Shown piece after piece: positions 2,299-61,974 of a stretch of 64,000 bases of DNA; the stretch's first letter is position 1; every line of letters starts with the position of its first letter. Position numbers and translations under genes: made by a program. Below the pieces are notes generated by a model. That model ran no database searches, was not told where the DNA came from, and worked only from the letters and a program-made list of their open reading frames with translations. Location: positions 64,001 through 128,000 of the IMG/VR virus record IMGVR_UViG_3300031784_000011; one strand, 5' to 3'. Origin of the DNA: a virus (Duplodnaviria; Heunggongvirae; Uroviricota; Caudoviricetes).

Positions 2299-5220
2299 TT
2301 AATTACATGTTCCAGTGCTTGTAAAAGTACCGTCACCATCATTCGTAACTTGAGGTGTTGGTGTTAAATAACCACAGTATGTCTCAGTTGTACCATTCCC
2401 AACAGTAATAAATTGAAGGGTACCGGTACAGTCAGTATAACTAAATGTGGTATGACCTCCTGTTCCTGTCGTTCCTCCATCGAATTCCCATAGTATGTCA
2501 CATGGAGTAGCCGAACTGGTTGGGGTGAGTGTTGGTGTTGGGGTATTTGTTGGTGTTACTGTATTGGTAGAAGTCACGGTCGGTGTTGGTGTTACAGTTT
2601 CAGTTGGTGTAACTGTATTAGTAGGTGTTACAGTATTCGTTGGGGTTACGGTCGGTGTTGGTGTTACAGTTTCAGTTGGTGTAACTGTATTAGTAGGTGT
2701 TATTGTTGGTGTTGATGTGGGCGAACCACCGGGTGATGTTGTAATTGTTGGAGTTACTGTATTAGTAGGTGTTACAGTATTCGTTGGGGTTACGGTCGGT
2801 GTTGGTGTTAAAGTATTGGTGGGTGTGGGTGTTACAAGTGGTATGATTGAATCGGAGCAAATACCCACCCTAGAACCTGAGGCACCACCATTACCTGATA
2901 TGGTCATCGAGATAAATGGTGTTGAATTTGTTATTATGAATTTTCCACCACCATTGACAAAAAGTGGTGCGGTTGAGCCACCAATAATTGTGTTACCTGT
3001 TATTGTTACATAACAACTTAACGGTGAAGATATTGTGGGGGTACCTGTATTTGTTGTAAATGTGAAATCTTCATCACTAGTACCACCCATACCGGTTATA
3101 AAAACAACTAAATCATTTACTGGTGAACTAAAATTGTATCTATATGAGAAAGGTCCTGAATTTCCTAAAAAGTTATGATAGTCGGTCATTACAATAGTGT
3201 CACCAACACAGGATGACGTGTATCCAGATGTATTTTCGGTAACACTACCACTATATGTTGATGTTATAGAAACACCGTTCACTGTCGAGGGGACATAAAC
3301 GCTATCGTTACAAGTATACCCTGTTGATGGTGTACTACTAACAGTTGGTGTTGGGGTAAGTGTTGGTGTATTCGTAGGAGTCGCACTCTGAGTCGGTGTT
3401 ACTGTTGGGGTGGGTGATGATATCGGTGTCGACGAACTATCACAACAATCATCCAAATTAACTCTAAAAACTTGTTCACAACAACCTTCACAATCAATTC
3501 TAACATATATCTCCATTAATGTTGGGTCTATACCTGTAATATCACAAATATCTCCTGTGGACATACTTGTACATGAAGTTATACCTGTTATGTTAGTTGA
3601 AGTTAATCCGGTATAGACCGTACAATTTGTATAATTAGAACCGGAATTAAATGAAATCTTAACGCCTTTTGGGGTGACCAAATCGTTTACACAACCTGAA
3701 GGTGTAACAGTAGGTGTAGGGGTTTTTGTTGGGGTGTTGGTGGGTGTTGGGGTTGGCGAACCACCAGGTGTTGATGTAACTGATGGTGTAACGCTAGGTG
3801 TTAGAGTCGGTGTTGATGTTACTGTAAGTGTAACTGTCGGTGTTAAAGACGGAGTTGTTGAAGGTGTTTCACTTGGTGTATTAGAGGGTGTTGCCGATGG
3901 TGAAGTAGTTGGTGTGGGCGAACCTCCTGGTGATGAAGTAACTGTAGGTGTAACTGTATTTGTAGGGGTTGATGTATTGGTTGGAGTTACTGATGGTGAG
4001 GTAGTTGGTGTGGGTGTAGGTGAATCGCCTGGTGATGAAGTAACTGTAGGTGTAACTGTATTTGTGGGAGTTGATGTATTGGTTGGTGTAGGTGAACCGC
4101 CAGGTGAAGTTGTGACTGTAGGTGTAACTGTATTTGTAGGAGTTACTGTTGGTGTGACAGATACAGTTGAAACCGGCGAACTTGTTGGTGTTACTGTTGG
4201 TGTTACTGTTGGTGTGACAGATACAGTTGAAGCTGGTGAACTTGTTGGTTCAGGAGTGACTGTAGGTGTGACTGTCGGAGTACTAGTTAATGTAGGTGTT
4301 GGGACCGGTAGTGAGTCACAATTTTGGTAGTCCTCACAACCACCATTAGGATTCACAACTATATTAGTTGGGTCACTGAATGTAATTGTTTGATTGTCAA
4401 AACATACACATTGATAAACCGTAGCAAAAGGTGCGATGGTTCCGGAAGTTTGAAGCAAACCATAACAATCAGTATATGAATATGTAATTGTATTTCCATC
4501 TTCACTTATGATTTGTTTACACACACAATCCGTACATATTGATGGTGTTGGTGTTGGGGTGGGGGATAGTGTTGGTGTTACAGTGTTAGTTGGTGTGGGT
4601 GTAACTGTTTTAGTAAGTGTTGGAGTTGGGGTTGGGGTTTCTGTGGGTGTTTCTGAAGGTGTTGGGGTTGGGGTTTCTGTGGGTGTTTCTGTTGGAGTTG
4701 GGGTTTCTGTGGGTGTTTCTGTTGGAGTTGGTGTCGGGGTTGGTGAAGGACATGATGGACACTCACCAGCTGTACAACTTGGTTGTGAAACCCACGTCCC
4801 AGTGTCGTCAACTGTTGCGGTTGAAGGGCCCGACGCAACCGCAATATAACAATCCGTATTGTCAGTGTATACACTACCTACTATATAATTTAATCCACTT
4901 TGTACTTCATAAATAGTGCCTCCTTGTTCACAACATTTTTCAAAAAAAGTGGTTTCTTGACATTGTGAACCACTATCATTTGCAGTACTATTCGATGCGG
5001 TTAATGGAGAATCGTTTTTAAAATAATATAAACTAGGTAATCCATTTTGTATGTCGGTACAAATAGTATAACTACCATTTGAAAAACTTGTTGTTGTAAG
5101 TACACCATTACAGTTGTAATAAGCAACATACACCTTACCATTATTAACAGGGTTAGTGTTACCGGTGGCATTACCGGTATCCAATGAACTTATTGTGACG
5201 TTATATAATTGACAAGCCAT
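2299..5220 (-). CDS. 973-aa Thr/Pro/Ser-rich (mucin-like) protein with Cys modules; putative fibre/decoration protein
   Basis: TPT tracts separate Cys-rich modules and a beta-rich domain (CNDSVYVP...GICSDS). No signal peptide or TM segment visible. Confidence 0.8.
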   Translation of the reverse strand: MACQLYNVTISSLDTGNATGNTNPVNNGKVYVAYYNCNGVLTTTSFSNGSYTICTDIQNGLPSLYYFKNDSPLTASNSTANDSGSQCQETTFFEKCCEQGGTIYEVQSGLNYIVGSVYTDNTDCYIAVASGPSTATVDDTGTWVSQPSCTAGECPSCPSPTPTPTPTETPTETPTPTETPTETPTPTPSETPTETPTPTPTLTKTVTPTPTNTVTPTLSPTPTPTPSICTDCVCKQIISEDGNTITYSYTDCYGLLQTSGTIAPFATVYQCVCFDNQTITFSDPTNIVVNPNGGCEDYQNCDSLPVPTPTLTSTPTVTPTVTPEPTSSPASTVSVTPTVTPTVTPTSSPVSTVSVTPTVTPTNTVTPTVTTSPGGSPTPTNTSTPTNTVTPTVTSSPGDSPTPTPTTSPSVTPTNTSTPTNTVTPTVTSSPGGSPTPTTSPSATPSNTPSETPSTTPSLTPTVTLTVTSTPTLTPSVTPSVTSTPGGSPTPTPTNTPTKTPTPTVTPSGCVNDLVTPKGVKISFNSGSNYTNCTVYTGLTSTNITGITSCTSMSTGDICDITGIDPTLMEIYVRIDCEGCCEQVFRVNLDDCCDSSSTPISSPTPTVTPTQSATPTNTPTLTPTPTVSSTPSTGYTCNDSVYVPSTVNGVSITSTYSGSVTENTSGYTSSCVGDTIVMTDYHNFLGNSGPFSYRYNFSSPVNDLVVFITGMGGTSDEDFTFTTNTGTPTISSPLSCYVTITGNTIIGGSTAPLFVNGGGKFIITNSTPFISMTISGNGGASGSRVGICSDSIIPLVTPTPTNTLTPTPTVTPTNTVTPTNTVTPTITTSPGGSPTSTPTITPTNTVTPTETVTPTPTVTPTNTVTPTNTVTPTETVTPTPTVTSTNTVTPTNTPTPTLTPTSSATPCDILWEFDGGTTGTGGHTTFSYTDCTGTLQFITVGNGTTETYCGYLTPTPQVTNDGDGTFTSTGTCN

Positions 5221-5223
5221 TTA

Positions 5224-5574
5224 TTACGTTATTTGAACAACATTAACATTAAATGCACATGGGTAGTAACAATCACTACATCTTAAATCAACTAATGCTA
5301 ATTGATAACCACCTTGCAATTTTGGTACCGATGATGGTACAGGGTTTATGTGTCCGTCACAGTGTTCCACAAATACAAAAATTTGTGGTATGTTATCCAA
5401 TAAACTTATATTAAACGTATATCCCGTTGATATTGGAATTAAAACTTCAACCCCATTGATATAATTTGCATCATCAATATTATGTGTTAACCCTGTGTAG
5501 ATATAGTACCCGTTACAAGGTGTTTGTCCTGAAAAATTTGATATTGTTACTGAGTATGTTACTAATGACGGCAT
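5224..5574 (-). CDS. 116-aa small Cys-containing beta-rich protein
   Basis: ORF with TATTTAT upstream. YIYTGLT...IFVFVEHC resembles the TVYTGLT...IYVRIDC module of the 973-aa protein. Confidence 0.75.
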   Translation of the reverse strand: MPSLVTYSVTISNFSGQTPCNGYYIYTGLTHNIDDANYINGVEVLIPISTGYTFNISLLDNIPQIFVFVEHCDGHINPVPSSVPKLQGGYQLALVDLRCSDCYYPCAFNVNVVQIT

Positions 5575-5580
5575 TATTTC

Positions 5581-5587
5581 ATAAATA
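5581..5587 (-). promoter_or_regulatory. TATTTAT putative late-promoter motif
   Basis: 6 nt upstream of ATG 5574. Confidence 0.55.
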
Positions 5588-5599
5588 TAAATTCAATGT

Positions 5600-6448
5600 T
5601 TAATTACAATAATCGGGATTTAAATCACAATCTATAAATGCAATACCACAATAGTTAGGGTCTGTTATGGTTCCACTTAAACCGGTTTGTGCAACTAAGT
5701 ATTCACCAGCACTTGGATTGAGTGTAATATTTCCACTATCCTGTGATGAACCAATGAATATTTGCCATTGTGGTGATGTGTATACCGCAATTACCACCCC
5801 TGAACTATTAACCTTATAAAAAGTAATTGGGATATTTGAAGTGGCGGTTGTTACACTACCTAAATTATCTTTTAGTGTCCAAGTAACTTCATATTGTATA
5901 TTTTCATCTATCGTTTCAATACTGTACCATAAACAATATGATGAAGGGGTGTTTTGTGTTGGAGTAGGAGTTGGAGTCTTGGTAACTGTTGGGGTTGGTG
6001 ATAAACCAGGAGTTTTTGTTGGAGTAGGGGTTGGTGTAATTGAAGCGTTCGGTGTCTTAGATGGTGTAGCGGTAACTGTTGGTGTTTTTGTAACTGTAGG
6101 TGTTGGGGTTGGGGTTCTTGTAACTGTAGGTGTTGGAGTTGGACTTATTGGTGGGTCACACTGTACCTCAACACTAAAACATAGTGTATCATAACAAGGA
6201 AACGCTTTACTATCGTGAGTGTAAATATTTTTAATTATATAACGACCTGTAGTGTCGTCTGTCATTTTAACCCAATATTGAGTATTAAAACTTAAGTTTG
6301 TAATTGTAACAGCTGTAAGAGTTAAACCTGTTGCGTAAAGTGTAAATGTTGAATTGTTCGTTTCAGGATACGGGCTATCACCGGACTTGTATCTAATTGA
6401 GTACGTACCATCATTGATTATATTGTATAAACGAACATTTAATCCCAT
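5600..6448 (-). CDS. 282-aa protein: two beta-rich (Fn3/Ig-like) domains joined by a Pro/Thr linker
   Basis: N-domain (...[17 protein letters not shown]) is Fn3-like, followed by about 70 aa of PT linker and a C-domain ending [16 protein letters not shown]. Confidence 0.75.
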
Positions 6449-6474
6449 TTTTTAATTATTGATTTCTATATTTG

Positions 6475-6481
6475 ATAAATA
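6475..6481 (-). promoter_or_regulatory. TATTTAT putative late-promoter motif
   Basis: 26 nt upstream of ATG 6448. Confidence 0.45.
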
Positions 6482-6511
6482 TAAAAAATCCTATTTTATA
6501 GTAAAGTTATT

Positions 6512-9076
6512 TTAACATCCATCACCAATTGTATACTGAGTAGTTACCGAACCAGAAACTACTTCATAAATTACACTTCCAATTTGAAAAAACCCATCAA
6601 ATGTTGTTGTTAAGTTATTATTCGTGTAGATGGTAACACCTGAATCATAAATATTGACCACATTTGGTAATGTGTATAATGTTACACTATACGAACCTGA
6701 ACACAACACAACCCCACTACAGTAATTTGTACATCCAACCATATTCCATTCTTGATATGTCGGACTAGGTGTTGGTGTAACTGATGGAGTTTTAGTTGGG
6801 GTTGGGGTTTTAGTTAAAGTAGGGGTTGGGGTTGGGGAAACCGCTACCAAGGATGAACCACAAATTTCGTATAGAGCATTATCATTTATACCATATATTG
6901 TATTTGTCGGTACATACAAAGGTTTAGAAATACCGTCACCAATAATTTCACTAAATATACCTGTTGTCGGGTCTAGAACACCTAAGAATCCATCTGACAA
7001 TGTTGAATATCTGCTAATATATAATTTACCGTTATCAGGATTATATATCATAGACCTTGTTGAGCCAAAAATCCAAGTTGCTCCCGATATTGAATTTAAA
7101 GTAAGTGTGGTGTTTGTTGCAACATCTATTTTGTATACCGTAGACGCACTAACTAAATAAATAATATTGTTCGTCACATCCAAAGCAATTAAACTTGCTG
7201 AGGTGATTGGTAGTGATGTACCATCTAACGAAATAGTATTACCAGAACAAGAATATATTCTACCACTCTGAGCGAAATATAATTTATTATTATTAGGATT
7301 GTAAACAGTCGCTTCAGGGTTTGATAAAGTTATACCTGTAATTTGGTTTGTAAAAGTATCTGTTGAACCATCTATGACACTAATTTGTGAAACTGAAAAA
7401 TTTCCACCTGTTTGACTAAATGCATAAATTTTATTTAAAACAGAATTATATTCAATTTTTCCTAAACCTGATGTTATTCCCGAAATTGATATTGACGATG
7501 TTGTGTTTGTGTTTAAATTTCTTATTAACATTTTAACAGGAAATGATGATTCCCAACTGTATAATTTGTTGTTAGTTGAGTTATATCCTAATAATAAACT
7601 ACTTCCTGACCATGTAAATTCATTTGTTAAACTTGTTGAATTTGGGACAAAAGATTGTACAACACTTGATGCGTTTAGAACGTATGCTTTGTTATTTGAT
7701 GATGAATAAACCATACCTTGTCTACCAACGGCAGAATATGAATTCGTTGCGGCAAGAGTATTTCTAACTGAATCACTACAACCACCTGATGGTGTTGGGG
7801 TCAGGGTCGGGGTTACGGTATTAGTAGGTGTTACACTTGGGGTCGCAACTGGATTACCGGATGGACTTGGTGTTGGGGTTTTTGTTGGGGTCGGGGTTGG
7901 AGATACAATAGGTACAGGTAATGTAAAATTCACAGAATTAGTACACGTACCAGTACTTTGAACTGTAAATGTTGTTATTGAATAACACACAAGTGCGGTA
8001 TACCCAGATAATAATTGAGATGTTGTCACACCAGTTGCAATTAATACTATAGTTCCTCCTGTTGTTGTTCCCGAAATATTATAAGGTCCGGCTTGCGTTA
8101 AAAAATAAATTGGGTGTAATGAGAATGTATATTGAGTACATCCTGTAGGTACTAGTGAAGGTGATGGGGTTACTGTGGGTGTTACACTAACAGTTACCGA
8201 AGGTGTTAATGAAGGGGTATTTGTGGGTGTATTTGTTGGTGTAACCGAAGGTGTCGAACCTAACGTACTTGACGGTGTATTTGTGGGTGTATTTGTTGGT
8301 GTAACCGAAGGTGTCGGAGTTAGACTTGGAGTTTTTGTTGGAGTTACAGTATTTGTTGGGGTTGGGGTTTCGGAAGGAGTTTCGGAAGGAGTTTGTGTTA
8401 ATGTGGGTGTTGGAGTTGGGGTCACACTCGGACAAACTACAGTACAGAAACCATTGAAAGATATCCCTGCATATGGGTAACTCGGGTCGTAACAAACATA
8501 TGTTGGTGAAAATGAACCACTATGATATACACCACAACAGTCCGTATAATACCAATTTGGTGAATCGGTTATACCTGAGTAACATAAAGTTGGTGTGGGT
8601 GTTGGAGTAGGGGTAGGAGTTGGACTTGGTGGTGTTAAACAGTCAATACAATTTGTAAAAAGAGCATTTTCAGAAATTAATTGTGCAACAGTATAATTGT
8701 AAGTGGTGCTACCAGTGCCTTGTTCATAAACTCCTGTATAGTTGTAACATGTACCATCATAAGAAATTGTTGCACCTGTACTTTGGAAATACTGATTAAC
8801 TTCTGAATTTTTTAAACCAAAGTAAACAAATGCCCCTGGTATTTGGCAATGTTCAAATTGCCACCCATTAAAATCGTCGTTACATTGTTCACAGGTTGTA
8901 TAACCACTAAAAATAACCGTACCTGACGGTCCACCTCCGACATTTCCTGTTGAAGACCAACATTGGTAATCAGCAAAAATCGTGTCACCCGATAATACTA
9001 AACTGTCATCGACGACAAAATCATAGTATGACGCTGGGTCTAAACAATTTTGAAATGTTATTATTTGTGCTGGCAT
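6512..9076 (-). CDS. 854-aa Cys-module/PT-linker protein with YVTN-type beta-propeller; putative adhesin
   Basis: About seven blades of the form xYNxxNNKxYxxx (MVYSSSNNKAYVLN, VYNPNNNKLYFAQ, MIYNPDNGKLYIS), plus ISVIDGSTDT, at about 6855-7785. Cys modules and PT tracts flank it. Confidence 0.75.
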   Translation of the reverse strand: MPAQIITFQNCLDPASYYDFVVDDSLVLSGDTIFADYQCWSSTGNVGGGPSGTVIFSGYTTCEQCNDDFNGWQFEHCQIPGAFVYFGLKNSEVNQYFQSTGATISYDGTCYNYTGVYEQGTGSTTYNYTVAQLISENALFTNCIDCLTPPSPTPTPTPTPTPTLCYSGITDSPNWYYTDCCGVYHSGSFSPTYVCYDPSYPYAGISFNGFCTVVCPSVTPTPTPTLTQTPSETPSETPTPTNTVTPTKTPSLTPTPSVTPTNTPTNTPSSTLGSTPSVTPTNTPTNTPSLTPSVTVSVTPTVTPSPSLVPTGCTQYTFSLHPIYFLTQAGPYNISGTTTGGTIVLIATGVTTSQLLSGYTALVCYSITTFTVQSTGTCTNSVNFTLPVPIVSPTPTPTKTPTPSPSGNPVATPSVTPTNTVTPTLTPTPSGGCSDSVRNTLAATNSYSAVGRQGMVYSSSNNKAYVLNASSVVQSFVPNSTSLTNEFTWSGSSLLLGYNSTNNKLYSWESSFPVKMLIRNLNTNTTSSISISGITSGLGKIEYNSVLNKIYAFSQTGGNFSVSQISVIDGSTDTFTNQITGITLSNPEATVYNPNNNKLYFAQSGRIYSCSGNTISLDGTSLPITSASLIALDVTNNIIYLVSASTVYKIDVATNTTLTLNSISGATWIFGSTRSMIYNPDNGKLYISRYSTLSDGFLGVLDPTTGIFSEIIGDGISKPLYVPTNTIYGINDNALYEICGSSLVAVSPTPTPTLTKTPTPTKTPSVTPTPSPTYQEWNMVGCTNYCSGVVLCSGSYSVTLYTLPNVVNIYDSGVTIYTNNNLTTTFDGFFQIGSVIYEVVSGSVTTQYTIGDGC

Positions 9077-9093
9077 TTATTACTATTCTTTCT

Positions 9094-9100
9094 ATAAATA
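9094..9100 (-). promoter_or_regulatory. TATTTAT putative late-promoter motif
   Basis: 17 nt upstream of ATG 9076. Confidence 0.5.
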
Positions 9101-9120
9101 CTTAAATCATTATTTTATCA

Positions 9121-12100
9121 TTAACATGCTTCTCCACAAAATGTGTTACAATAATCACCACAACCAGTACCGTATGTATATTGCGAAGTATATATTGGTG
9201 GTACGAAGTTTCCTCTAAACAATATAAACACATTTGTCACTCTCATAAGACAAACGCTATAATTACCAGGGGCGTTATAACCTTGTGTTGTGAATGTACC
9301 ATCACAACATTGGTATGCAAAGTATACTTGATTATCATCTGAGGCTGTTAAATCATTAATATCAACAAAAAAGTCTGTACACAAACAATCACCACAAGCA
9401 CCATCATACGTTATCTCCCCACCATAAGGACCTAATACACTTGGAATACTACATGAACATATCTCAATTGTACCACTTGCTGGGTACACATTTGGGTCAA
9501 GTATTTCTGTGGGTGTTCCTCCACCGCAACAAGTGGTATAGTTAACTATATTACCAGGTCCTAATCCTGTAATAATATATGACTCACAAACACATGGTGG
9601 AGTTGGGGTTGGGGTCGGAGTTGGAGTTGGGGTTGGGGTTGATGACGGATTTGAAACCGGAGATGGTGTTGGAGTGTTTGTTGGAGTGTTTGTTGGAGTT
9701 ACAGTCTTGGTTGGTGTATTTGTAGGAGTATTGGTTGGTGTTAAAGTTGGAGTAACTGTCCTTGTTGGAGTATTTGTAGGGGTAAAGGTTGGAGTTACAG
9801 TCTTGGTTGGAGTATTTGTAGGGGTAAAGGTTGGAGTTACAGTCTTGGTTGGTGTATTTGTAGGGGTAAAGGTTGGAGTTACAGTCTTGGTTGGTGTATT
9901 TGTAGGAGTATTGGTTGGTGTTAAAGTTGGAGTAACTGTCCTTGTTGGTGTATTTGTCGGTGTTTTTGTTGGGGTTAAAGTTGGTGTAACTGTTGGTGTA
10001 ACTGTTGGGGTTGGTGAAGGACAAGGGTGATAAGTTTCACATTCAGTACATGTATTGTATGTACCATACGCAGTGATTGCGGAACCAGGTACTCCTGGTC
10101 CGACTGAGTTTGTAACAAAATAACAACAACCATTAATTGATATATAACGGTTTACTAAAAGATTTGGGTTAAATCCATTTTGACAACCAAATTGAATTGT
10201 ATATTGTCCTGTTGTACCACAACATCCACATCTTTGTAAATCGAAAATCCAAGTGGCGCATGGGTTAGCTCCAATACATGTTTCACATGTATCAACACTA
10301 AATGATGATGGTGGATAATACCCGTCAACCCCACTAAAGTTTGGTGGTGAGTAGGTTTGACTATAACCTTCAACAAAATAACAACATCCATTTATAACAA
10401 TAGTTTGACCTTGTGAAATACCGCTTTGAACATAGGTCAAATTAGTTGTTATACTTAAATAAGAAATAGTATTACCTAAAATACCACCATCACAACATGG
10501 TAATAAATAAACATAACCAACCTGTAAGGATGGTGATGGTGTTACTGTGCTTGTTGGTGTTAATGTAGGAGTTAAAGTTGGTGTAACTGTTTTTGTTGGT
10601 GTATTGGTAGGGGTTACGGATGGTGTTCTCGTAGGAGTAACACTATTGGTTGGGGTGTTAGTCGGGGTTAAAGTTGGTGTAACTGTTCTTGTTGGTGTAT
10701 TGGTAGGGGTTACCGTAGGGCTAACAGTGGCGGCTGGAGTTCTTGTTGGAGTAACAGTATTTGTTGGGGTATTGGTTGGTGTGAGAGTTGGTGTAACTGT
10801 TCTTGTTGGTGTATTGGTAGGGGTTACCGTATTCGTAGGTGTAACAGTTCTGGTTGGTGTTGGTGTCGGGGTTGGTGATGGACAAAAATTTAGAGTTTCT
10901 CCTAAACATTGTGCACAACTTGTCTGAACAGTAGTGTAAATCGTACCTCCAGGTCCTACCTGTTGCACATACGTTGCACATAACTGAATGTCTTGTAAAT
11001 AAAATACCGTACCTAACAATGTACCTAATGGTACTTGACCATAATAAACATTGGTGTCACCAGGACAACATGATTCAAATCTAGCAGCAACATACTGAGG
11101 ACTAGCCGTTGGGGTTACTGTTTTGGTTGGTGTCAATGTTGGTGTAACAGTATTTGTTGGAGTGTTAGTTGGTGTTACGGTTGGACTAACTGTGGCAGCC
11201 GGTGTTCTTGTTGGTGTAACAGTATTTGTTGGGGTATTTGTTGGAGTTACCGTAGGACTAACAGTGGCTGCTGGAGTTCTTGTTGGGGTATTGGTTGGGG
11301 TAACAGTATTTGTGGGGGTTACTGTGTTCGTTGGGGTATTGGTAGGTGTATTTGTTGGTGTTAATGTTGGACTAACAGTAGCCGCTGGTGTTCTTGTTGG
11401 TGTAACAGTATTTGTTGGGGTATTTGTTGGAGTTACCGTATTTGTTGGAGTATTAGTTGGGGTGTTAGTTGGTGTTACAGTGTTGGTTGGTGTATTAGTT
11501 GGAGTTAAAGTTGGTGTAACTGTTCTTGTTGGTGTATTGGTAGGTGTAACTGTATTCGTAGGGGTGACTGTATTAGTTGGAGTGTTGGTTGGAGTATTAG
11601 TTGGAGTTAAGGTTGGACTAACAGTGGCAGCTGGTGTTCTTGTCGGGGTTACGGTATTAGTAGGGGTATTGGTTGGAGTTACCGTATTTGTTGGAGTATT
11701 AGTTGGGGTGTTGGTTGGAGTAACAGTGTTGGTTGGGGTGTTAGTAGGGGTGTTGGTCGGTGTAACTGTATTTGTTGGAGTAACAGTATTAGTAGGTGTG
11801 TTTGTTGGTGTGTTAGTCGGTGTTAATGTTGGACTAACAGTAGCCGCTGGTGTTCTCGTAGGAGTTACAGTATTGGTAGGAGTATTGGTAGGAGTAACGG
11901 TGTTTGTTGGGGTGTTTGTAGGAGTATTGGTTGGTGTTACAGTATTGGTTGGAGTATTGGTTGGTGTAAAAGTTGGTGTAACAGTTTTTGTTGGTGTATT
12001 AGTAGGAGTATTGGTCGGTGTGACAGTGTTGGTTGGTGTTACTGTATTTGTTGGAGTATTGGTTGGGGTATTGGTTGGTGTAAGGGTAGGACTAACAGTG

Positions 12101-15100: not shown

Positions 15101-18100
15101 GGCGTTACAGTATTGGTTGGGGTTACCGTATTTGTAGGAGTTACGGTATTGGTTGGAGTAACAGTATTAGTCGGCGTTACTGTGTTAGTTGGGGTGTTAG
15201 TGGGGGTAACAGTATTAGTAGGAGTAACGGAATTCGTGGGAGTGTTTGTAGGAGTGTTTGTTGGTGTTAATGTAGGTGTTACGGTTTTTGTTGGTGTATT
15301 GGTTGGGGTTACTGTATTTGTAGGAGTATTTGTAGGAGTTAAGGTAGGTGTAACAGTATTGGTTGGGGTATTGGTAGGTGTGTTGGTCGGGGTGACTGTG
15401 TTAGTTGGTGTAACTGTATTAGTTGGTGTATTCGTAGGGGTTTGAGTTGGTGTAACAGTATTGGTTGGGGTATTTGTTGGAGTTAAAGTTGGTGTGACAG
15501 TTTTTGTTGGTGTATTGGTAGGAGTTACGGTATTTGTAGGAGTATTAGTCGGTGTCTGAGTTGGTGTTACGGTGTTTGTTGGAGTATTGGTTGGAGTTAA
15601 TGTAGGTGTTACAGTCTTGGTTGGTGTATTAGTTGGTGTTACAGTATTAGTAGGTGTAACAGTATTAGTAGGTGTAACAGTGTTTGTAGGTGTAACGGTA
15701 TTGGTGGGAGTCACCGTATTAGTTGGTGTGTTAGTTGGGGTTACGGTGTTGGTTGGAGTAACGGTATTTGTTGGGGTGTTTGTAGGAGTGTTTGTTGGTG
15801 TTAATGTAGGTGTTACGGTTTTTGTTGGTGTATTGGTTGGTGTAACAGTATTTGTTGGTGTGTTGGTGGGTGTGTTGGTGGGTGTTACAGTATTAGTTGG
15901 GGTATTAGTAGGACTCAATGTTGGGGTAACAGTATTCGTTGGTGTTACAGTATTGGTTGGAGTGTTTGTTGGGGTATTTGTTGGGGTTACGGTATTAGTA
16001 GGGGTATTGGTTGGAGTTAATGTAGGAGTAACAGTCTTGGTTGGTGTATTAGTTGGCGTAACAGTGTTTGTTGGGGTGTTAGTTGGGGTATTTGTAGGGG
16101 TTACCGTATTGGTCGGAGTGTTGGTTGGTGTTAATGTAGGAGTAACAGTCTTGGTTGGAGTGTTTGTTGGGGTAACAGTATTGGTTGGAGTCACTGTATT
16201 AGTTGGTGTGTTGGTCGGTGTATTTGTTGGGGTTAAAGTTGGTGTGACAGTTTTTGTTGGTGTATTGGTTGGGGTTACTGTGTTAGTAGGAGTGTTTGTA
16301 GGTGTATTAGTAGGGGTATTAGTATTAGTCGGGGTATTGGTCGGTGTAACTGTATTCGTTGGAGTAACGGTAGGAGTTAATGTAGGAGTAACAGTCTTGG
16401 TTGGTGTATTAGTAGGTGTGTTAGTAGGGGTTACCGTATTGGTTGGGGTGTTAGTCGGGGTAACTGTGTTAGTTGGTGTGTTAGTTGGTGTGTTGGTCGG
16501 AGTTACCGTATTTGTTGGAGTATTTGTAGGGGTTAAGGTAGGCGTAACAGTTCTTGTTGGAGTATTGGTCGGTGTAACTGTATTCGTTGGAGTTACAGTG
16601 TTAGTGGGGGTTACGGTATTGGTCGGCGTTACAGTGTTAGTCGGTGTTACCGTATTAGTTGGAGTATTTGTTGGCGTAACAGTGTTTGTTGGAGTTACAG
16701 TGTTTGTGGGGGTATTGGTTGGAGTATTGGTGGGAGTCTGAGTTGGGGTGACTGTCTTAGTTGGGGTATTGGTCGGGGTAACTGTGTTGGTTGGAGTAAC
16801 GGTATTTGTTGGGGTATTGGTCGGGGTATTGGTTGGAGTTAAAGTTGGCGTAACAGTGTTTGTTGGTGTATTGGTAGGTGTTACAGTATTAGTTGGGGTA
16901 TTGGTTGGAGTTAAAGTTGGTGTAACAGTTTTTGTTGGTGTATTAGTTGGCGTTACAGTATTAGTTGGTGTGTTAGTTGGTGTGTTTGTTGGGGTTACCG
17001 TATTGGTCGGAGTTACCGTAGGACTCAATGTAGGAGTTACAGTATTAGTTGGTGTGTTGGTTGGTGTGACTGTATTCGTTGGAGTGTTAGTAGGTGTCTG
17101 AGTTGGGGTAACAGTATTTGTTGGAGTATTGGTAGGAGTATTGGTAGGGGTTACAGTATTGGTAGGAGTATTGGTAGGGGTTACAGTATTGGTAGGAGTA
17201 TTCGTTGGGGTTAGAGTTGGTGTAACAGTTTTGGTAGGAGTATTAGTAGGGGTTACAGTATTTGTAGGAGTTACCGTAGGACTCAATGTGGGAGTCACCG
17301 TATTAGTTGGTGTATTGGTTGGGGTTACGGTGTTGGTTGGAGTGTTTGTAGGTGTATTAGTTGGAGTAACAGTATTTGTAGGTGTATTAGTCGGGGTATT
17401 GGTTGGTGTTACGGTGTTGGTTGGGGTTAAAGTTGGTGTGACAGTTTTTGTTGGTGTATTGGTTGGCGTAACAGTGTTTGTCGGAGTATTAGTTGGGGTG
17501 TTGGTTGGTGTATTAGTTGGAGTTACAGTGTTGGTTGGAGTGTTAGTTGGTGTTACGGTATTGGTTGGGGTTACTGTGTTTGTAGGAGTATTGGTCGGTG
17601 TATTCGTTGGGGTTAGAGTTGGTGTAACAGTTTTGGTAGGAGTATTAGTAGGAGTTATAGTATTCGTTGGTGTGTTGGTCGGTGTAACAGTATTAGTTGG
17701 GGTGTTGGTTGGGGTGTTGGTTGGAGTAACAGTATTAGTTGGAGTATTAGTTGGGGTGTTGGTTGGAGTAACAGTGTTTGTTGGGGTTACCGTAGGGCTC
17801 AATGTGGGAGTTACAGTTTTAGTAGGGGTGTTTGTTGGAGTTACGGTGTTGGTTGGGGTATTGGTTGGTGTGTTAGTTGGTGTAACTGTATTAGTGGGAG
17901 TCACTGTAGGGCTCAATGTTGGAGTTACAGTGTTGGTTGGGGTGTTAGTTGGTGTATTGGTTGGTGTAACTGTATTCGTTGGAGTGTTTGTAGGAGTGTT
18001 GGTTGGGGTTACAGTATTAGTTGGTGTGTTGGTTGGAGTTAATGTAGGTGTAACGGTTCTTGTGGGGGTGTTGGTAGGGGTTACGGTATTAGTTGGAGTG

Positions 18101-21100
18101 TTTGTTGGGGTATTTGTTGGGGTTACGGTATTAGTTGGAGTGTTTGTTGGGGTATTTGTTGGGGTTACGGTATTAGTAGGGGTATTGGTTGGGGTATTTG
18201 TTGGGGTTACGGTATTAGTAGGGGTATTGGTTGGAGTTAATGTAGGTGTAACGGTTCTTGTGGGGGTGCTGGTAGGGGTTACGGTGTTAGTTGGAGTGTT
18301 GGTAGGTGTGTTAGTTGGCGTAACGGTGTTAGTTGGAGTCACAGTCGGACTCAATGTAGGTGTTACTGTATTTGTTGGGGTGTTGGTAGGGGTATTTGTA
18401 GGTGTTACGGTGTTGGTAGGTGTAACTGTTGGACTCAATGTAGGAGTCACAGTATTTGTTGGTGTATTTGTAGGTGTGTTAGTTGGGGTAACGGTATTAG
18501 TTGGAGTGTTGGTTGGTGTATTTGTTGGTGTTACTGTGTTAGTAGGGGTATTTGTGGGAGTATTTGTAGGTGTTACGGTGTTGGTAGGTGTAACTGTTGG
18601 ACTCAATGTGGGAGTCACAGTTTTAGTAGGAGTATTTGTAGGTGTTACGGTGTTGGTAGGTGTGTTTGTTGGGGTATTGGTTGGAGTTACCGTATTCGTC
18701 GGAGTATTAGTAGGGGTGTTAGTTGGAGTTACAGTGTTTGTTGGTGTGTTTGTAGGGGTATTGGTAGGTGTTACTGTGTTAGTAGGAGTATTTGTAGGAG
18801 TATTGGTTGGTGTTACGGTATTTGTAGGAGTTACAGTTGGTGTTAATGTAGGAGTCACCGTGTTTGTTGGGGTATTGGTGGGAGTATTTGTAGGGGTTAC
18901 CGTATTTGTCGGTGTATTGGTTGGTGTTAAAGTAGGTGTAACCGTTCTTGTTGGAGTGTTAGTTGGTGTAACCGTATTTGTAGGAGTATTAGTAGGGGTG
19001 TTGGTAGGGGTTACAGTATTCGTAGGGGTATTGGTTGGTGTATTCGTGGGTGTGACAGTATTAGTTGGTGTTACGGTTGGACTCAGTGTAGGGGTTACTG
19101 TATTGGTTGGAGTGTTAGTTGGGGTATTTGTAGGTGTAACTGTATTTGTTGGGGTGTTTGTAGGTGTATTAGTTGGTGTAACTGTATTAGTTGGTGTATT
19201 CGTAGGGGTTTGAGTTGGTGTAACAGTATTTGTAGGAGTCACAGTCGGACTCAATGTGGGAGTCACGGTCTTAGTCGGTGTGTTAGTAGGGGTAACTGTG
19301 TTCGTAGGAGTTACCGTAGGACTCAATGTAGGGGTGACAGTGTTGGTTGGAGTATTGGTTGGTGTGTTGGTTGGTGTTACGGTGTTTGTAGGAGTTACTG
19401 TATTAGTAGGAGTGTTCGTAGGGGTATTGGTAGGGGTTACTGTGTTAGTTGGAGTGTTAGTAGGTGTATTGGTAGGAGTAACTGTATTGGTTGGTGTATT
19501 TGTGGGTGTAACAGTGTTAGTTGGTGTGTTAGTTGGTGTGTTGGTAGGAGTTACGGTGTTAGTTGGAGTATTTGTAGGTGTCTGAGTTGGTGTAACTGTA
19601 TTCGTAGGGGTTACAGTCGGACTCAGTGTAGGTGTTACTGTGTTAGTCGGGGTAACTGTAGGTGTATTTGTTGGAGTTACAGTGTTGGTTGGGGTGTTGG
19701 TTGGAGTTACGGTGTTCGTTGGAGTATTGGTTGGTGTATTAGTTGGGGTTACTGTATTAGTTGGAGTATTGGTTGGGGTATTGGTTGGAGTTACAGTCTT
19801 GGTTGGTGTGTTGGTTGGTGTTACGGTGTTTGTTGGAGTATTGGTTGGAGTGTTTGTGGGGGTGTTGGTTGGTGTTACGGTGTTTGTTGGGGTGACTGTA
19901 TTGGTTGGAGTGTTTGTTGGGGTGTTGGTGGGAGTATTTGTAGGGGTTACCGTATTTGTCGGTGTATTGGTTGGTGTTAAAGTAGGTGTAACCGTTCTTG
20001 TTGGAGTTACAGTCGGACTCAATGTTGGAGTTACTGTATTGGTTGGTGTTAGTGTCGGGCTTAATGTTGGTGTAACAGTACTAGTTGGGGTATTGGTTGG
20101 GGTGTTGGTTGGAGTTACCGTATTGGTTGGTGTATTCGTCGGTGTATTTGTAGGTGTAACAGTATTCGTAGGTGTTACAGTTGGAGTATTGGTTGGGGTT
20201 ACTGTGTTAGTTGGAGTATTGGTGGGGGTATTGGTTGGAGTAACAGTATTTGTTGGTGTCACAGTCGGACTCAATGTTGGTGTAACAGTTTTTGTTGGGG
20301 TATTTGTCGGTGTCTGAGTTGGTGTTACGGTATTGGTTGGCGTATTGGTAGGAGTATTGGTTGGCGTATTTGTTGGAGTTACGGTATTAGTTGGTGTGAC
20401 TGTATTGGTTGGGGTGTTAGTCGGCGTGTTCGTAGGGGTGTTGGTTGGTGTTACCGTATTTGTTGGTGTATTAGTAGGTGTGTTAGTAGGTGTTACTGTA
20501 TTTGTAGGCGTGTTCGTGGGAGTCTGAGTTGGTGTTACAGTGTTAGTAGGAGTGTTAGTTGGCGTGTTAGTGGGTGTAACAGTATTAGTAGGAGTCACCG
20601 TTGGACTCAATGTAGGTGTAACAGTATTGGTTGGTGTGTTGGTCGGAGTGTTGGTAGGAGTTACAGTATTAGTAGGAGTCACCGTTGGACTCAATGTAGG
20701 TGTAACTGTATTTGTTGGGGTATTTGTTGGGGTATTGGTAGGAGTTACTGTATTAGTCGGAGTGTTGGTCGGGGTGTTGGTTGGAGTAACAGTGTTGGTG
20801 GGAGTATTGGTTGGAGTGTTAGTTGGTGTATTTGTTGGGGTTACGGTGTTGGTTGGAGATACCGTATTTGTAGGAGTATTGGTTGGAGTGTTAGTTGGGG
20901 TTAGTGTTGGGGTTACGGTGTTTGTTGGGGTATTGGTAGGTGTATTGGTTGGTGTAACGGTATTTGTAGGAGTAACAGTGTTGGTTGGAGTATTGGTAGG
21001 ACTTAATGTTGGCGTATTAGTTGGGGTTACGGTGCTGGTTGGAGTCACTGTTGGACTCAATGTAGGTGTAACTGTATTTGTTGGTGTGTTGGTAGGAGTG

Positions 21101-24100
21101 TTTGTAGGAGTCACAGTATTAGTAGGAGTCACAGTTGGACTTAATGTGGGAGTTACTGTATTAGTTGGAGTGTTGGTAGGTGTGTTAGTTGGGGTTACTG
21201 TATTTGTCGGGGTATTGGTTGGGGTATTTGTTGGTGTAACGGTGTTGGTCGGAGTGTTTGTGGGAGTATTTGTAGGAGTTACTGTGTTCGTAGGAGTTAC
21301 TGTAGGACTCAATGTTGGTGTTACTGTATTTGTTGGGGTGTTAGTAGGAGTGTTTGTTGGAGTCACCGTGTTTGTTGGGGTATTGGTGGGAGTATTTGTT
21401 GGTGTAACAGTATTTGTTGGGGTGTTAGTTGGGGTGTTGGTAGGAGTTACCGTATTGGTTGGTGTGTTAGTTGGGGTGTTGGTAGGAGTTACCGTATTGG
21501 TTGGTGTGTTAGTAGGAGTGTTTGTTGGTGTAACAGTATTGGTTGGTGTGTTAGTAGGAGTGTTTGTTGGTGTAACAGTATTGGTAGGAGTTACAGTTGG
21601 GGTGTTGGTTGGAGTTACAGTATTAGTAGGCGTATTGGTAGGAGTATTAGTTGGAGTTACTGTATTTGTAGAAGTATTGGTAGGAGTATTGGTAGGGGTG
21701 ACAGTATTGGTGGGCGTATTGGTAGGAGTATTGGTTGGGGTGACTGTATTTGTTGGAGTATTTGTTGGGGTGTTAGTTGGAGTTACTGTATTTGTAGGAG
21801 TATTGGTAGGAGTATTGGTAGGGGTGACAGTATTGGTGGGGGTGTTTGTAGGAGTATTGGTAGGGGTGACAGTATTGGTTGGAGTATTAGTTGGGGTGAC
21901 TGTATTTGTTGGAGTATTTGTTGGGGTGTTGGTAGGGGTGTTGGTAGGAGTTACAGTATTGGTTGGAGTAACTGTATTGGTTGGAGTGTTTGTCGGGGTA
22001 TTTGTAGGTGTCAGTGTCGGTGTTACGGTATTTGTTGGAGTATTAGTAGGAGTGTTAGTTGGTGTAACCGTATTTGTTGGTGTATTTGTGGGTGTATTGG
22101 TAGGAGTAACTGTATTGGTAGCCGTATTGGTAGGAGTGTTGGTTGGTGTATTAGTTGGTGTGACTGTATTGGTCGGAGTTACCGTCGGTGTATTTGTTGG
22201 GGTTACGGTATTGGTAGGGGTTACTGTTGGTGTATTCGTAGGCGTGTTTGTTGGGGTTACGGTATTTGTTGGAGTATTAGTGGGGGTATTCGTAGGTGTA
22301 TTGGTTGGTGTTACGGTGTTAGTTGGGGTATTTGTAGGGGTTTGAGTTGGTGTAACGGTATTGGTTGGAGTCACTGTTGGACTCAATGTTGGCGTTACCG
22401 TATTGGTAGGAGTATTAGTTGGCGTATTGGTAGGAGTAACTGTGTTGGTTGGGGTGTTGGTAGGAGTGTTAGTTGGTGTTACAGTATTAGTTGGTGTGTT
22501 AGTTGGTGTGTTTGTTGGTGTTACGGTGTTCGTAGGGGTGTTAGTAGGTGTCAGTGTTGGGGATACCGTATTGGTAGGAGTGTTAGTTGGTGTATTTGTA
22601 GGGGTTACCGTATTGGTAGGAGTATTAGTTGGTGTATTTGTAGGAGTAGCAGTATTAGTAGGGGTATTTGTTGGAGTATTGGTCGGTGTTACAGTGTTTG
22701 TTGGAGTGTTGGTTGGTGTTACAGTGTTTGTTGGGGTGTTTGTCGGAGTGTTGGTTGGGGTATTCGTTGGTGTTACAGTATTTGTAGGGGTTACGGTGTT
22801 GGTTGGAGTATTGGTGGGGCTTAATGTTGGGGTATTTGTAGGGGTTACGGTGTTGGTTGGGGTCGCTGTTGGAGTCAATGTAGGTGTAACTGTATTGGTT
22901 GGGGTATTGGTAGGAGTATTGGTTGGGGTAACAGTATTGGTAGGAGTAACTGTTGGACTCAATGTAGGAGTAACTGTATTGGTAGGAGTGTTTGTTGGTG
23001 TATTGGTTGGTGTTACAGTATTAGTTGGAGTATTTGTTGGAGTTAAAGTTGGTGTAACAGTTTTTGTTGGTGTATTAGTTGGGGTGTTAGTAGGAGTTAC
23101 TGTATTGGTTGGTGTGTTTGTGGGAGTATTGGTTAATGTAACGGATGGTGTTACAGTGTTGGTTGGTGTTACCGTTGGAGTATTGGTGGGTGTTGGGGTG
23201 CTCGTTGGAGTTGGTGAGGGTAACATTGTATAATCAATGTCACAAGAAGGTGCTGGTGTTGGTGAAACCGTCACAGTTACACTTGGTGTATTTGTTGGAG
23301 TTACAGTATTGGTTGGAGTTACAGTATTTGTCGGGGTGTTTGTGGGGGTAACTGTATTGGTTGGAGTCACTGTTGGACTCAATGTTGGTGTTACAGTGTT
23401 AGTAGGAGTGTTGGTCGGCGTGTTAGTTGGAGTATTGGTTGGTGTTACGGTGTTAGTTGGTGTTACCGTAGGACTCAATGTAGGAGTCACAGTATTGGTA
23501 GGTGTATTGGTTGGAGTATTGGTTGGTGTTACGGTGTTAGTTGGTGTTACCGTAGGACTCAATGTAGGAGTCACAGTATTCGTTGGTGTGTTTGTAGGTG
23601 TATTAGTCGGAGTTACGGTGTTGGTTGGAGTTACGGTATTTGTGGGAGTGTTTGTAGGAGTGTTGGTAGGAGTGTTTGTTGGAGTTACGGTGTTGGTTGG
23701 GGTATTGGTTGGGGTATTGGTTGGTGTAACGGTATTTGTAGGAGTATTTGTAGGTGTCTGAGTTGGAGTTACTGTATTCGTCGGTGTGTTTGTTGGGGTG
23801 TTGGTAGGAGTTACGGTATTGGTAGGACTTAATGTTGGAGTGTTAGTTGGAGTATTTGTTGGAGTTACTGTGTTGGTTGGAGTATTCGTAGGTGTAACCG
23901 TATTTGTTGGTGTATTAGTTGGGGTGTTTGTAGGTGTATTAGTTGGTGTCACAGTTTCTGTTGGAGTCACTGTAACAGTATTGGTTGGTGTGACTGTATT
24001 GGTAGGGGTTACGGTGTTGGTTGGTGTAAGTGTTGGTGTTTCTGTGGGAGTATTTGTTGGTGTGTTGGTGGGGGTATTTGTTGGTGTTTCGGTTGGTGTA

Positions 24101-25539
24101 TTTGTAGGTGTATTAGTTGGAGCTACCGTATTTGTTGGAGTTACAGTTGGAGTGTTAGTTGGGGTAACCGTTGGTGTAACAGTATTGGTAGGAGTATTGG
24201 TTGGGGTTTGAGTTGGTGTAACGGTTGCAGTATTTGTTGGTGTTAGGGTAGGTGTTTCAGTTTGTGTTACAGTGGGTGTATTGGTTGGAGTTACAGTATT
24301 GGTTGGAGTTACAGTTGAGGTATTAGTCGGAGTGTTAGTTGGTGTTATGGTGTTGGTTGGGGTATTGGTAGGTGTTTCGGTAGGGGTAACGGTTGGACTC
24401 AGTGTTGGTGTTACTGTGTTAGTCGGAGTATTAGTTGGGGTGTTGGTTGGTGTTTCGGTAGGGGTAACGGTTAGGGTTACGGTGTTGGTTGGAGTATTGG
24501 TTGGTGTTTCGGTTGGTGTTTCGGTTGGTGTATTAGTTGGGGTAACAGTATTGGTTGGAGTTACAGTTGGGGTAACAGTTGGGGTAACAGTTGGAGTTAC
24601 GGTGTTGGTTGGGGTATTGGTTGGTGTTTCGGTTGGTGTTTCGGTTGGTGTATTAGTTGGGGTAACAGTATTTGTTGGGGTGTTAGTGGGTGTTTCAGTC
24701 GGTGTATTAGTTGGGGTATTGGTTGGTGTTTCGGTAGGGGTTACTGTATGAGTTGGTGTATTGGTAGGTGTTTCGGTAGGGGTTACCGTATTTGTTGGAG
24801 TTACAGTTGGAGTTTCGGTAGGGGTAACTGTATTTGTTGGGGTGTTGGTAGGTGTTTCAGTTGGTGTATTGGTTGGGGTTACCGTATTTGTTGGGGTTAC
24901 AGTTGGAGTTTCGGTCGGAGTAACAGTTGGTGTCTCGGTTGGTGTAACTGTATTCGTAGGAGTTACAGTAGGTGTGTTGGCTGGTGATTCGGTTGGAGTT
25001 ACTGTGTTAGTTGGGGTAACTGTAGGAGTTTCAGTTGGGGTAACCGTTGGGGTATTTGTTGGGGTATTGGTTGGAGTTACTGTGTTAGTTGGAGTAACTG
25101 TAGGAGTTTCAGTTGGGGTAACTGTAGGCTCGTTTGTTGGAGTATTAGTCGGAGTTACGGTATTCGTAGGAGTATTTGTTGGAGTGATAGTATTGGTTGG
25201 GGTAACAGTAGGTGTTTTTGTAACCGTAGGTGTAACAGTAGGGGTTTTGGTAACTGTTGGGGTTGGGGTATTTGAAGTAAAGGTTGTTGGTGTTGGTGTT
25301 AATGATGGTGTAAGTGTTGGTGAAGGTGTAGGTGAAGGTGTAGGGCAAGGAATCTCAGCCACACAAGTTTTATCAAGTGACGGAAAATAAACTGAGTAAG
25401 TACCTAAGTAGTAGTTTGTGTCGTAATAATATGGCATCACGACAGTACCTAAATTCAAGGTACCGCCAGTACAAGGATAAAATGTGATAACACCAATTTC
25501 ACCATCAAAATTACCTGTGTTTATTTTTATTAATGCCAT
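9121..25539 (-). CDS. Giant 5472-aa Thr/Pro-rich mucin-like protein with short N-terminal domain and five C-terminal Cys modules
   Basis: One uninterrupted 16.4 kb ORF: 65-aa N-domain, about 4750 aa of (T/S)-X array, then Cys modules separated by shorter arrays. Third codon positions vary, which fits a real coding sequence. Confidence 0.9.
11101..25344 (-). repeat. Coding low-complexity array of TPTN / TVTPTN / TLSP / TKTV / TPAATVSP units
   Basis: Every second codon is Thr (ACN), or occasionally Ser/Ala, giving a 6-nt NGT periodicity and strong G+T skew on the plus strand. Interrupted once at about 23218-23256. Confidence 0.95.
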
Positions 25540-38701: not shown

Positions 38702-38707
38702 TATTCT

Positions 38708-38714
38708 ATAAATA
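38708..38714 (-). promoter_or_regulatory. TATTTAT putative late-promoter motif
   Basis: 6 nt upstream of ATG 38701; second copy at 38738-38744. Confidence 0.55.
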
Positions 38715-61960: not shown

Positions 61961-61967
61961 TTATATT

Positions 61968-61974
61968 ATAAATA
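61968..61974 (-). promoter_or_regulatory. TATTTAT putative late-promoter motif
   Basis: 7 nt upstream of ATG 61960. Confidence 0.55.

Follow-up and report, generated by a model that had tools for sequence, protein, structure and literature searches.

Modular, hypervariable receptor-binding loci of tailed phages encode proteins in which a conserved N-terminal anchor carries an exchangeable C-terminal binding domain—as in the branched tailspike sets of the CBA120 and G7C type, or the fiber and adhesin cassettes of T-even phages. Here, we describe a cluster of five consecutive genes (positions 2299-25539) in a 64,000-nucleotide stretch of DNA, hereafter termed the window, which covers positions 64,001 to 128,000 of the IMG/VR record IMGVR_UViG_3300031784_000011 (Caudoviricetes) and represents the minus strand of this 288-kb record of a large uncultured freshwater phage, with an estimated completeness of 92%. 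We propose, with a probability of roughly 60%, that the five genes constitute a hypervariable adhesin or receptor-binding cassette at the distal end of a baseplate operon, with its products built on long, possibly O-glycosylated tethers. Like the CBA120, G7C and T-even loci, the cassette is distal in its operon and combines conserved N-terminal domains, swapped modules, faster divergence than the flanks and a variable gene number; judged by these features of its genes, it would behave as a receptor-binding or adhesin cassette. Unlike those loci, it consists of beads on Thr/Pro tethers of up to 4,757 residues, with no β-helix, collagen, tail-collar or chaperone-type fiber domains in the four proteins scanned (here and below, all cassette proteins other than the largest) and no evidence of trimeric shafts. 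It is, in short, a known kind of phage locus in an unusual, mucin-like build without recognizable rigid fiber domains, and the first-pass annotation of this DNA, which had presented the cluster as an undescribed system, overstated the case. Literature searches found no published description of such phage proteins. The cassette comprises the following genes, taken from the open reading frame (ORF) listing and the translations (aa, amino acids; positions are those of the window unless a genome or contig is named):

9121-25539, minus strand: giant protein, 5472 aa
6512-9076, minus strand: 854-aa protein
5600-6448, minus strand: 282-aa protein
5224-5574, minus strand: 116-aa protein
2299-5220, minus strand: 973-aa protein

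Parts of this design have counterparts in other described systems. Immunoglobulin (Ig)-like and FN3 decoration domains occur on phage structural proteins, e.g., Hoc of phage T4, and belong to the idea of phage adherence to mucus. The cassette shares with Hoc small β-sandwich modules of a kind used for weak multivalent adhesion, the N-terminal domain (N-domain) of the 282-aa protein being FN3-like, whereas its modules lie in separate baseplate-operon genes instead of on the capsid and are combined with very long linkers, a propeller and Cys-rich modules. Binding of Hoc to mucin is mentioned in PMC11853027. Like mucins and the protist glycoproteins initiated by glycosyltransferase family 60 (GT60; Dictyostelium, Trypanosoma cruzi; PMC8724618), the cassette has long Thr/Pro tracts flanked by Cys-rich domains, and, in a further likeness to the GT60-using protists, the phage genome encodes two GT60 homologues with the DSH motif. 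Unlike mucins, the four proteins scanned have no VWD or cystine-knot domains, the giant shows strict Thr-X alternation and not mixed Pro/Thr/Ser repeats, and synthesis would take place in the bacterial cytoplasm without a secretory pathway, with a glycosylation that we only infer. PT-box linkers join modules in bacterial cellulases and multi-module carbohydrate-binding proteins. In the same manner, alternating Pro-Thr (PT) spacers connect small independent binding modules in the cassette, but over thousands of residues as opposed to tens, in a phage baseplate operon and with no catalytic module detected. The head filament of Caulobacter phage phiCbK is a flexible capture line by which encounters become more frequent. 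A similar role is proposed here for the giant, which as a long flexible tether would reach the host ahead of baseplate engagement, although no relation in sequence or position exists, as the phiCbK filament sits on the head and the giant gene in the baseplate operon. Finally, Freeman et al. reportedly found in 2023 that phage glycosyltransferases O-glycosylate the capsid and tail tube of mycobacteriophages, and giant viruses have glycosylated fibrils. The phage studied here likewise encodes glycosyltransferases, sugar-nucleotide enzymes and candidate structural acceptors; unlike in those systems, the family is GT60 and the candidate acceptors are putative dedicated mucin-like appendage proteins. 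Glycosylation of mycobacteriophage virion proteins is echoed in PMC11256854.

Evidence for a receptor-binding cassette comes from its variation among relatives, in which two conserved genes mark its borders:

25630-29874, minus strand: anchor A, 1414-aa conserved structural protein directly upstream of the cassette, from comparison with relatives
111-2261, minus strand: anchor B, 716-aa conserved protein, last gene of the structural block, from comparison with relatives

In relatives from IMG/VR, the block between these anchors holds zero, two, three, four or five genes. There are five in the window and its closest relatives, five small ones in L047, four in L038 and L043, three in L056 and two in G004, and anchor A directly adjoins anchor B in L055, L063/L064, L070, L071, L073 and L074. 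Synteny with baseplate genes in relatives, on which the first-pass annotation had let its proposal depend, is thus observed. When the window is compared with relative G001, anchors A and B share 97% and 96% protein identity, respectively, and the flanks 87-89% DNA identity, whereas the cassette modules share only 44-86% protein identity and their DNA aligns merely in patches at 64-80%. Modules have also been exchanged between proteins. Ten related loci have kept the N-domain of the 282-aa protein, which there heads proteins of 125-639 aa with differing C-terminal parts; in L084, an N-domain of this type bears the propeller and the C-terminal module that belong to the 854-aa protein in the window. 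The locus consequently presents the hallmarks of an adhesin cassette—a conserved N-terminal part, an exchangeable distal part and a divergence faster than that of the flanks. Moreover, two relatives carry fusions. In G004, the anchor A homologue (52% identity, residues 1-1005) is extended by ~890 aa made up of PT linkers and small modules, and in G003, where no cassette separates anchors A and B, a homologue of the 388-aa baseplate-operon protein contains 1,024 linker residues together with modules. Cassette-style architecture is therefore covalently part of conserved structural-operon proteins in these phages, and the fusions are, in our view, the strongest reason at hand to think that the free-standing cassette proteins may be baseplate appendages.

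The genomic setting agrees with this view. Upstream of anchor A lie two genes that identify the operon as a baseplate operon, and a promoter-like motif occurs within the cassette:

40588-41040, minus strand: gp25-like wedge (PHROG, 4.3e-19)
38754-40586, minus strand: gp6-like baseplate wedge (PHROG, 1.7e-22)
9093-9100, minus strand: TATTTATA, a promoter-like motif 17 nucleotides (nt) upstream of the 854-aa gene (motif search)

The gp25- and gp6-like genes are followed by six unassigned structural genes (encoding 1374, 586, 277, 388, 305 and 1414 aa) and then by the cassette, at the distal end of the tail/baseplate block; the genome has sheath- and tube-like genes, recognized by eye from their N-terminal sequences, still farther upstream. 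In 64 kb, there are four exact copies of the 8-mer TATTTATA, against 9.5 expected by chance, and all four stand on the coding strand, 6-17 nt ahead of a start codon. These sites (2270-2277, 9093-9100, 38707-38714 and 61967-61974) precede the 716-aa, 854-aa, 1374-aa baseplate and 1611-aa genes, respectively, and a close variant, ATATTTAT, precedes the 116-aa, 282-aa, 305-aa and gp25-like genes. We consider TATTTATA a likely late-promoter core; as the TATTTAT(A) motif is common to cassette and baseplate genes, the regulatory signal appears to be shared. Attachment of the cluster to a baseplate operon, as first proposed, is accordingly upheld by the upstream gp25- and gp6-like genes, the single strand, the short gaps and the common motif.

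Two labels attached earlier to the flanking genes found no support. The 1414-aa gene had been called a gp7-like wedge, but anchor A gave no match, to gp7 or otherwise, in Pfam, PHROG, PDB (searched with the single sequence and with a 13-sequence profile) or cultured phages (tblastn). Likewise, the 716-aa gene had been called DUF3751-like, whereas no PF12571 match appeared anywhere in the genome even at E<=1, nor in 13 members of the anchor B family at E<=5; a robust match to anchor B was also missing from Pfam, PHROG, PDB (including searches with the family profile) and cultured phages. Anchor A has 79 related loci in IMG/VR (48-97% identity), in which the first ~800-970 aa are conserved and the C-terminal part varies. 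For anchor B, six related loci were found in IMG/VR, with more copies downstream of anchor A in other loci. Sequence searches of Pfam, PHROG, PDB and cultured phages returned nothing usable for the 1374-aa protein, and our guess, made from gene order, is that its gene, which follows gp6, is the likelier occupant of the gp7 position. This protein (34577-38701) contains 26 Cys and, at residues 605-625, a short PT linker; with a Kyte-Doolittle value of 1.89 at residue 486, it also has the 19-residue segment of highest hydrophobicity in the block.

Within the cassette, the ORF listing agrees with the first-pass annotation on five consecutive genes of 5472, 854, 282, 116 and 973 aa and on their coordinates; all are on the minus strand and are separated by gaps of 3-63 nt. 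The shared design that had been described for four of them was recovered by translation and by a linker/module parse: these four proteins have Thr/Pro/Ser linkers between modules of 40-300 aa, many of them Cys-rich. Linker residues number 5052 in the giant and 226, 91 and 481 in the other linker-bearing proteins, and Cys counts are 42 (giant), 24 (854-aa), 7 (282-aa), 5 (116-aa) and 35 (973-aa). Equally, the impression that the proteins have no signal peptide or transmembrane helix held, since no such segment was seen in any of the five (maximum Kyte-Doolittle value over 19 residues <=1.40), and so did that of missing collagen, β-helix and chaperone-type fiber domains, as far as Pfam covers the four proteins scanned. 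Those four have no Pfam match at all, on Cys modules or elsewhere, and PHROG matches fall only on the linkers of the 973-, 282- and 854-aa proteins. BLAST detected no paralogy among the modules of the window, and hhalign gave one convincing pair, the last module of the giant and the first module of the 973-aa protein (probability 93%), so that a single common family of Cys modules is not confirmed. The sequence itself is real and widespread: 97-98% of sampled words from the stretch running from the 973-aa to the 854-aa gene are present in 19 runs from 13 lake or freshwater metagenome studies (2017-2024); three of these runs may be the source of the assembly, and one metatranscriptome contains 8% of these words.

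The giant protein is the most extreme member of the set, with a conserved 60-aa N-domain, a 4,757-residue tract and four or five Cys-rich C-terminal modules:

25363-25539, minus strand: N-terminal domain (residues 1-59), candidate docking domain, conserved in relatives
11092-25362, minus strand: (Thr-X)n tract (residues 60-4816), from composition and repeat analysis
9121-11091, minus strand: distal Cys-rich modules (residues ~4817-5472), from the module parse, relatives and hhalign

Thr makes up 48% of the tract and alternates in 97% of steps, with Pro (1003), Asn (745) and Val (420) as leading partner residues; the giant accordingly has the long Pro/Thr/Ser-rich tandem tract that is expected of a mucin. 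The DNA of the tract matches itself at >=90% identity over no more than 110 bp, repeated 71-mers cover only 0.8% of positions, Tandem Repeats Finder (TRF) arrays are 63-70% matched, and all four Thr codons are used, scrambled synonymously. Because the tract DNA is so strongly degenerate, recent slippage expansion or an assembly collapse is argued against, and the pattern argues for long-standing selection that would act at the protein level. The frame is open across 16.4 kb and joins N- and C-terminal modules that are both conserved, which likewise speaks against a chance product: the N-domain is kept in 13 related loci, and homologues of the C-terminal modules occur in L010, L081 and L084. 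A search of viral contigs with the C-terminal part returned mostly linker matches and no additional spanning contigs. Homologues of the giant measure 2940 and 2737 aa, and the IMG/VR contigs L003, L004, L005, L006, L031 and others stop 0.1-3.5 kb past the anchor A gene, inside the tract. Short-read assemblies thus break systematically in the tract, leaving the cassette under-represented in databases, and the length of the giant must be regarded as variable, with the value in the window taken from one assembly. A three-copy complex prediction of the N-domain scored 0.01, which is no answer and counts as evidence neither way. With regard to modification, D-(S/T)-(A/I/L/V/M/T), the motif of general O-glycosylation in Bacteroidota hosts, was ruled out for the tract, which has only 2 Asp, and inspection of the tract units revealed no N-X-S/T sequons. 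A paralogue of the giant N-domain lies outside the window on a 308-aa protein (G000:C1:52194-53120; L105:2195-3121) that also contains a PT linker of 81 residues and matches F5/8-type-C (discoidin) weakly, at 24.5 bits and under the cut-off; its gene is ~12 kb upstream of the sheath-like gene, and G004 has a 1106-aa version at a similar site away from the cassette.

The folds that could be assigned to modules of the smaller proteins are as follows:

6845-7786, minus strand: seven-bladed β-propeller of the YncE/lactonase type, residues 431-744 of the 854-aa protein (ESM Atlas matches)
6158-6448, minus strand: FN3-like N-domain, residues 1-97 of the 282-aa protein (AlphaFold, Foldseek, Atlas)
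4957-5220, minus strand: β-sandwich module, residues 1-88 of the 973-aa protein (structure prediction)

The 854-aa protein is composed of N-terminal Cys modules, PT linkers, a "GPYNISG" module, the propeller and a C-terminal Cys module. The Atlas model of the propeller aligns over 282-305 residues with clusters of the YNCE, Lactonase and NHL families at template modeling (TM) scores of 0.54-0.62, and its distant sequence homologues carry PF21783, PF10282 and PF01436; as the Pfam scan of the 854-aa protein itself is negative, the propeller is a divergent family member at the level of the fold. The N-domain of the 282-aa protein was confidently modeled as a seven-strand sandwich (AlphaFold with small alignments; predicted local distance difference test, pLDDT, of 85-92 over residues 1-70), and its top PDB, viral and Atlas matches are nearly all FN3 or Ig domains, with target TM scores of 0.46-0.60 and probabilities of up to 0.99 but weak E-values of 0.09 or higher; Pfam gave no fn3 match on this protein. 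A PT linker and a C-terminal domain follow, the latter with no homologues among the fetched loci.

The 116-aa gene was rightly taken for a free-standing module, since relatives have it as the N-terminal domain of longer proteins (242 to 1170 aa; among them those of L032, 1075 aa, and L028, 1170 aa). In the window, this gene closes with TAA TAA and is directly followed by the in-frame ATG of the 973-aa gene (5218-5226); L080 and L081 have a junction of the same type with identical 3-nt spacing and a common frame, and the arrangement suggests that an N-domain has been separated from its distal part in a conserved manner. The 973-aa protein itself contains the β-sandwich module, a Cys module, long PT linkers and four more modules. 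Its residues 1-88 gave a confident model of a small β-sandwich with only generic C2, FN3 or lectin-type matches (Z <= 4.4; VIA-align and Foldseek), and the Atlas matches include phage tail-related and SprB-repeat clusters. This sandwich belongs to a small family, with 72 clusters in a set of 1.84 billion representatives; longer members of the family carry PT tracts, and some also have SprB repeats or Fib_succ_major or VWA domains. One member is encoded immediately upstream of a gene for 701 aa, whose length and position alone suggest that it is probably an anchor B homologue. The second, Cys-rich module of the 973-aa protein (pLDDT 35-59) and the Cys-rich "CC...C...CxxC" modules were poorly modeled. 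Searches of the non-repeat modules with profiles and structures, as advised at the outset, thus had a divided outcome, yielding FN3-like, β-sandwich and YncE-type propeller folds on one side and blank Pfam scans of the four proteins on the other. As models, the FN3-like sandwich, the generic β-sandwich and the propeller all represent putative binding scaffolds.

Glycosyltransferases, for which a search elsewhere in the genome had been recommended, were indeed found:

G000:C1:265375-267907, outside the window: two adjacent GT60 homologues (PF11397, profile match)

They score 244.4 and 164.3 bits against a curated cut-off of 21 and display the DSH (QLDSHH) and HGEE motifs, with no signal peptide or transmembrane segment seen by eye; both are predicted members of the polypeptide α-N-acetylglucosamine (GlcNAc)-transferase family GT60 of CAZy. 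Dictyostelium and T. cruzi use GT60 enzymes to begin mucin-type O-glycosylation of Ser/Thr-rich domains, and one paralogue acts on Skp1 in the cytosol (PMC8724618). The phage pair heads an operon of ~17 co-oriented genes with Pfam matches to a HAD/nucleotidyltransferase, a second nucleotidyltransferase, three methyltransferase-type proteins (TylF or Methyltransf_24, one fused to GT2/HtrL) and a RuBisCO-like protein, and more GT2 genes occur in a second glycan island. The RuBisCO large-chain-like protein has 409 aa (PF00016, E = 1.1e-31; G000:C1:272967-274196, L104:7968-9197). The same operon contains three paralogous proteins of ~270 aa starting with "M(R/K)VAVCYSGM..." (L104:5450-6253, 9906-10745 and 10745-11548; G000:C1:270449-276547) that have no Pfam match and are candidate novel glycan-modifying enzymes. 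Relatives G001, G003 and G004 encode GT60 as well, and it occurs in 189 viral stretches. In three of the viral contigs, L201, L212 and L213, a PT-tract protein with Cys-rich end modules is encoded directly upstream of GT60 on the same strand. Those at L212:8530-9954 and L201:8981-9943 combine PT tracts with repeated Cys-rich modules of about 35 aa, e.g., CITSGNACIVSGSPVGTCCDGLTCTEVDGNLSTCQ, and L201 carries a TPTNTP tract in the style of the giant tract.

Taken together, these features suggest how the cassette could work. The small, conserved, β-rich N-domain of each protein would probably dock on the periphery of the baseplate, and the docked proteins would carry swappable binding modules—FN3/Ig-like sandwiches, Cys-rich sandwiches and a YncE-type propeller—on Thr/Pro tethers. 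In the giant, a 4,757-residue tether would hold the distal Cys-rich modules at its tip; if extended, this tether would measure ~1.2-1.7 micrometers by contour arithmetic (0.25-0.36 nm per residue); since it could span micrometers, it may serve as a long flexible capture line. In the host cytoplasm, the two GT60 homologues could plausibly O-glycosylate the tethers, and the GT60-headed operon would then extend these glycans, a modification that would stiffen and protect the chains.

Several observations weigh against this proposal or parts of it. Both anchors are, in the searches described above, without a recognizable family, and neither has a cultured relative, so that virion incorporation is argued from synteny and from the logic of the fusions only. 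Most modules likewise appear to have no homology to one another that alignment can detect. The size of the giant comes from a single assembly, and its relatives are about half as long. No Erv1/ALR or DsbA homologue was found in the genome, which leaves disulfide chemistry in the Cys modules, and with it the disulfide-linked coat imagined at first, unsupported; the only redox genes seen in this connection are two neighbors, one for thioredoxin (82.6 bits) and one for glutaredoxin (35.4 bits), at G000:C1:153133-153601, just upstream of the first glycan island, which we presume to be more likely tied to ribonucleotide reduction. The GT60 pair is ~134 kb away from the cassette, in a separate operon, and could have another target; of 80 viral loci, 21 have a PT-rich ORF at a distance of up to 10 kb from GT60, which does not exceed the ~26% estimated as a rough background from this genome. 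These last points favor an alternative in which the proteins still form virion appendages, whereas their Thr/Pro tracts carry no glycans and serve as plain entropic linkers of the PT-box type, with GT60 modifying the capsid, other tail proteins or host proteins, and G003, which has GT60 yet no cassette between its anchors, speaks for it as well. Nevertheless, G003 and G004 still bear large PT tracts in baseplate-operon proteins, PT-tract proteins adjoin GT60 in the three contigs named above, and a naked Thr-rich chain of 4,757 residues would, on general grounds, be exposed to proteases. Moreover, characterized GT60 acceptors are Ser/Thr-rich mucin-like domains (PMC8724618). On balance, we consider bare linkers rather unlikely; because PT-rich ORFs are not enriched near GT60 and yet adjoin it in L201, L212 and L213, O-glycosylation of the tracts is plausible but unproven.

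A different possibility is that the proteins never enter virions and are late soluble products freed at lysis—for instance, decoys or matrix-binding factors that coat debris, particles and neighboring cells. The lack of recognizable fiber, collagen or β-helix domains in the four proteins scanned would fit such a role, but the block lies inside a baseplate operon with a conserved structural gene on either side, the same arrays are covalently fused to conserved proteins of that operon in relatives, conserved N-domains with variable distal parts are typical of particle-docking proteins, and no secretion signal was seen; we therefore judge soluble products improbable. Less credible still is that the giant ORF reflects an assembly or repeat-expansion artefact, or a decaying gene, with a size devoid of biological meaning. 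The many related contigs that break within this gene and the shorter closest relatives (2940 and 2737 aa) are what such an artefact would predict, whereas the 16.4-kb open frame that ties conserved end modules, the scrambled synonymous codons and the absence of any close self-match beyond 110 bp contradict it, and relatives likewise have tracts of several thousand residues, which makes this explanation highly improbable.

The receptor-binding cassette therefore remains our preferred reading of the locus. A bolder version of it, which we put forward tentatively and hold to be doubtful as yet, is that a lineage of large freshwater phages makes its own mucins, i.e., glycosylated, baseplate-anchored "fishing lines" on the micrometer scale with Thr-X tracts of thousands of residues, O-GlcNAc-initiated by GT60 in the bacterial cytoplasm, extended by the glycan operon and tipped with swappable modules. 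If true, this would mean an enlarged capture radius, a virus-encoded, cytoplasmic form of mucin-type glycosylation in bacteria and the longest known appendage of a tailed phage. Even in its simpler form, the cassette reading would, if correct, imply that abundant uncultured lake phages—as gauged by 79 anchor A loci and near-identical DNA in 19 runs from 13 studies—recognize their hosts without rigid trimeric fibers, through rapidly reshuffled, tethered binding modules. Additionally, the GT60 link turns the long-standing question of what phage glycan operons target into a direct experiment, and the clear borders of the cassette between two conserved anchors provide a practical marker for following host-range evolution in metagenomic time series.

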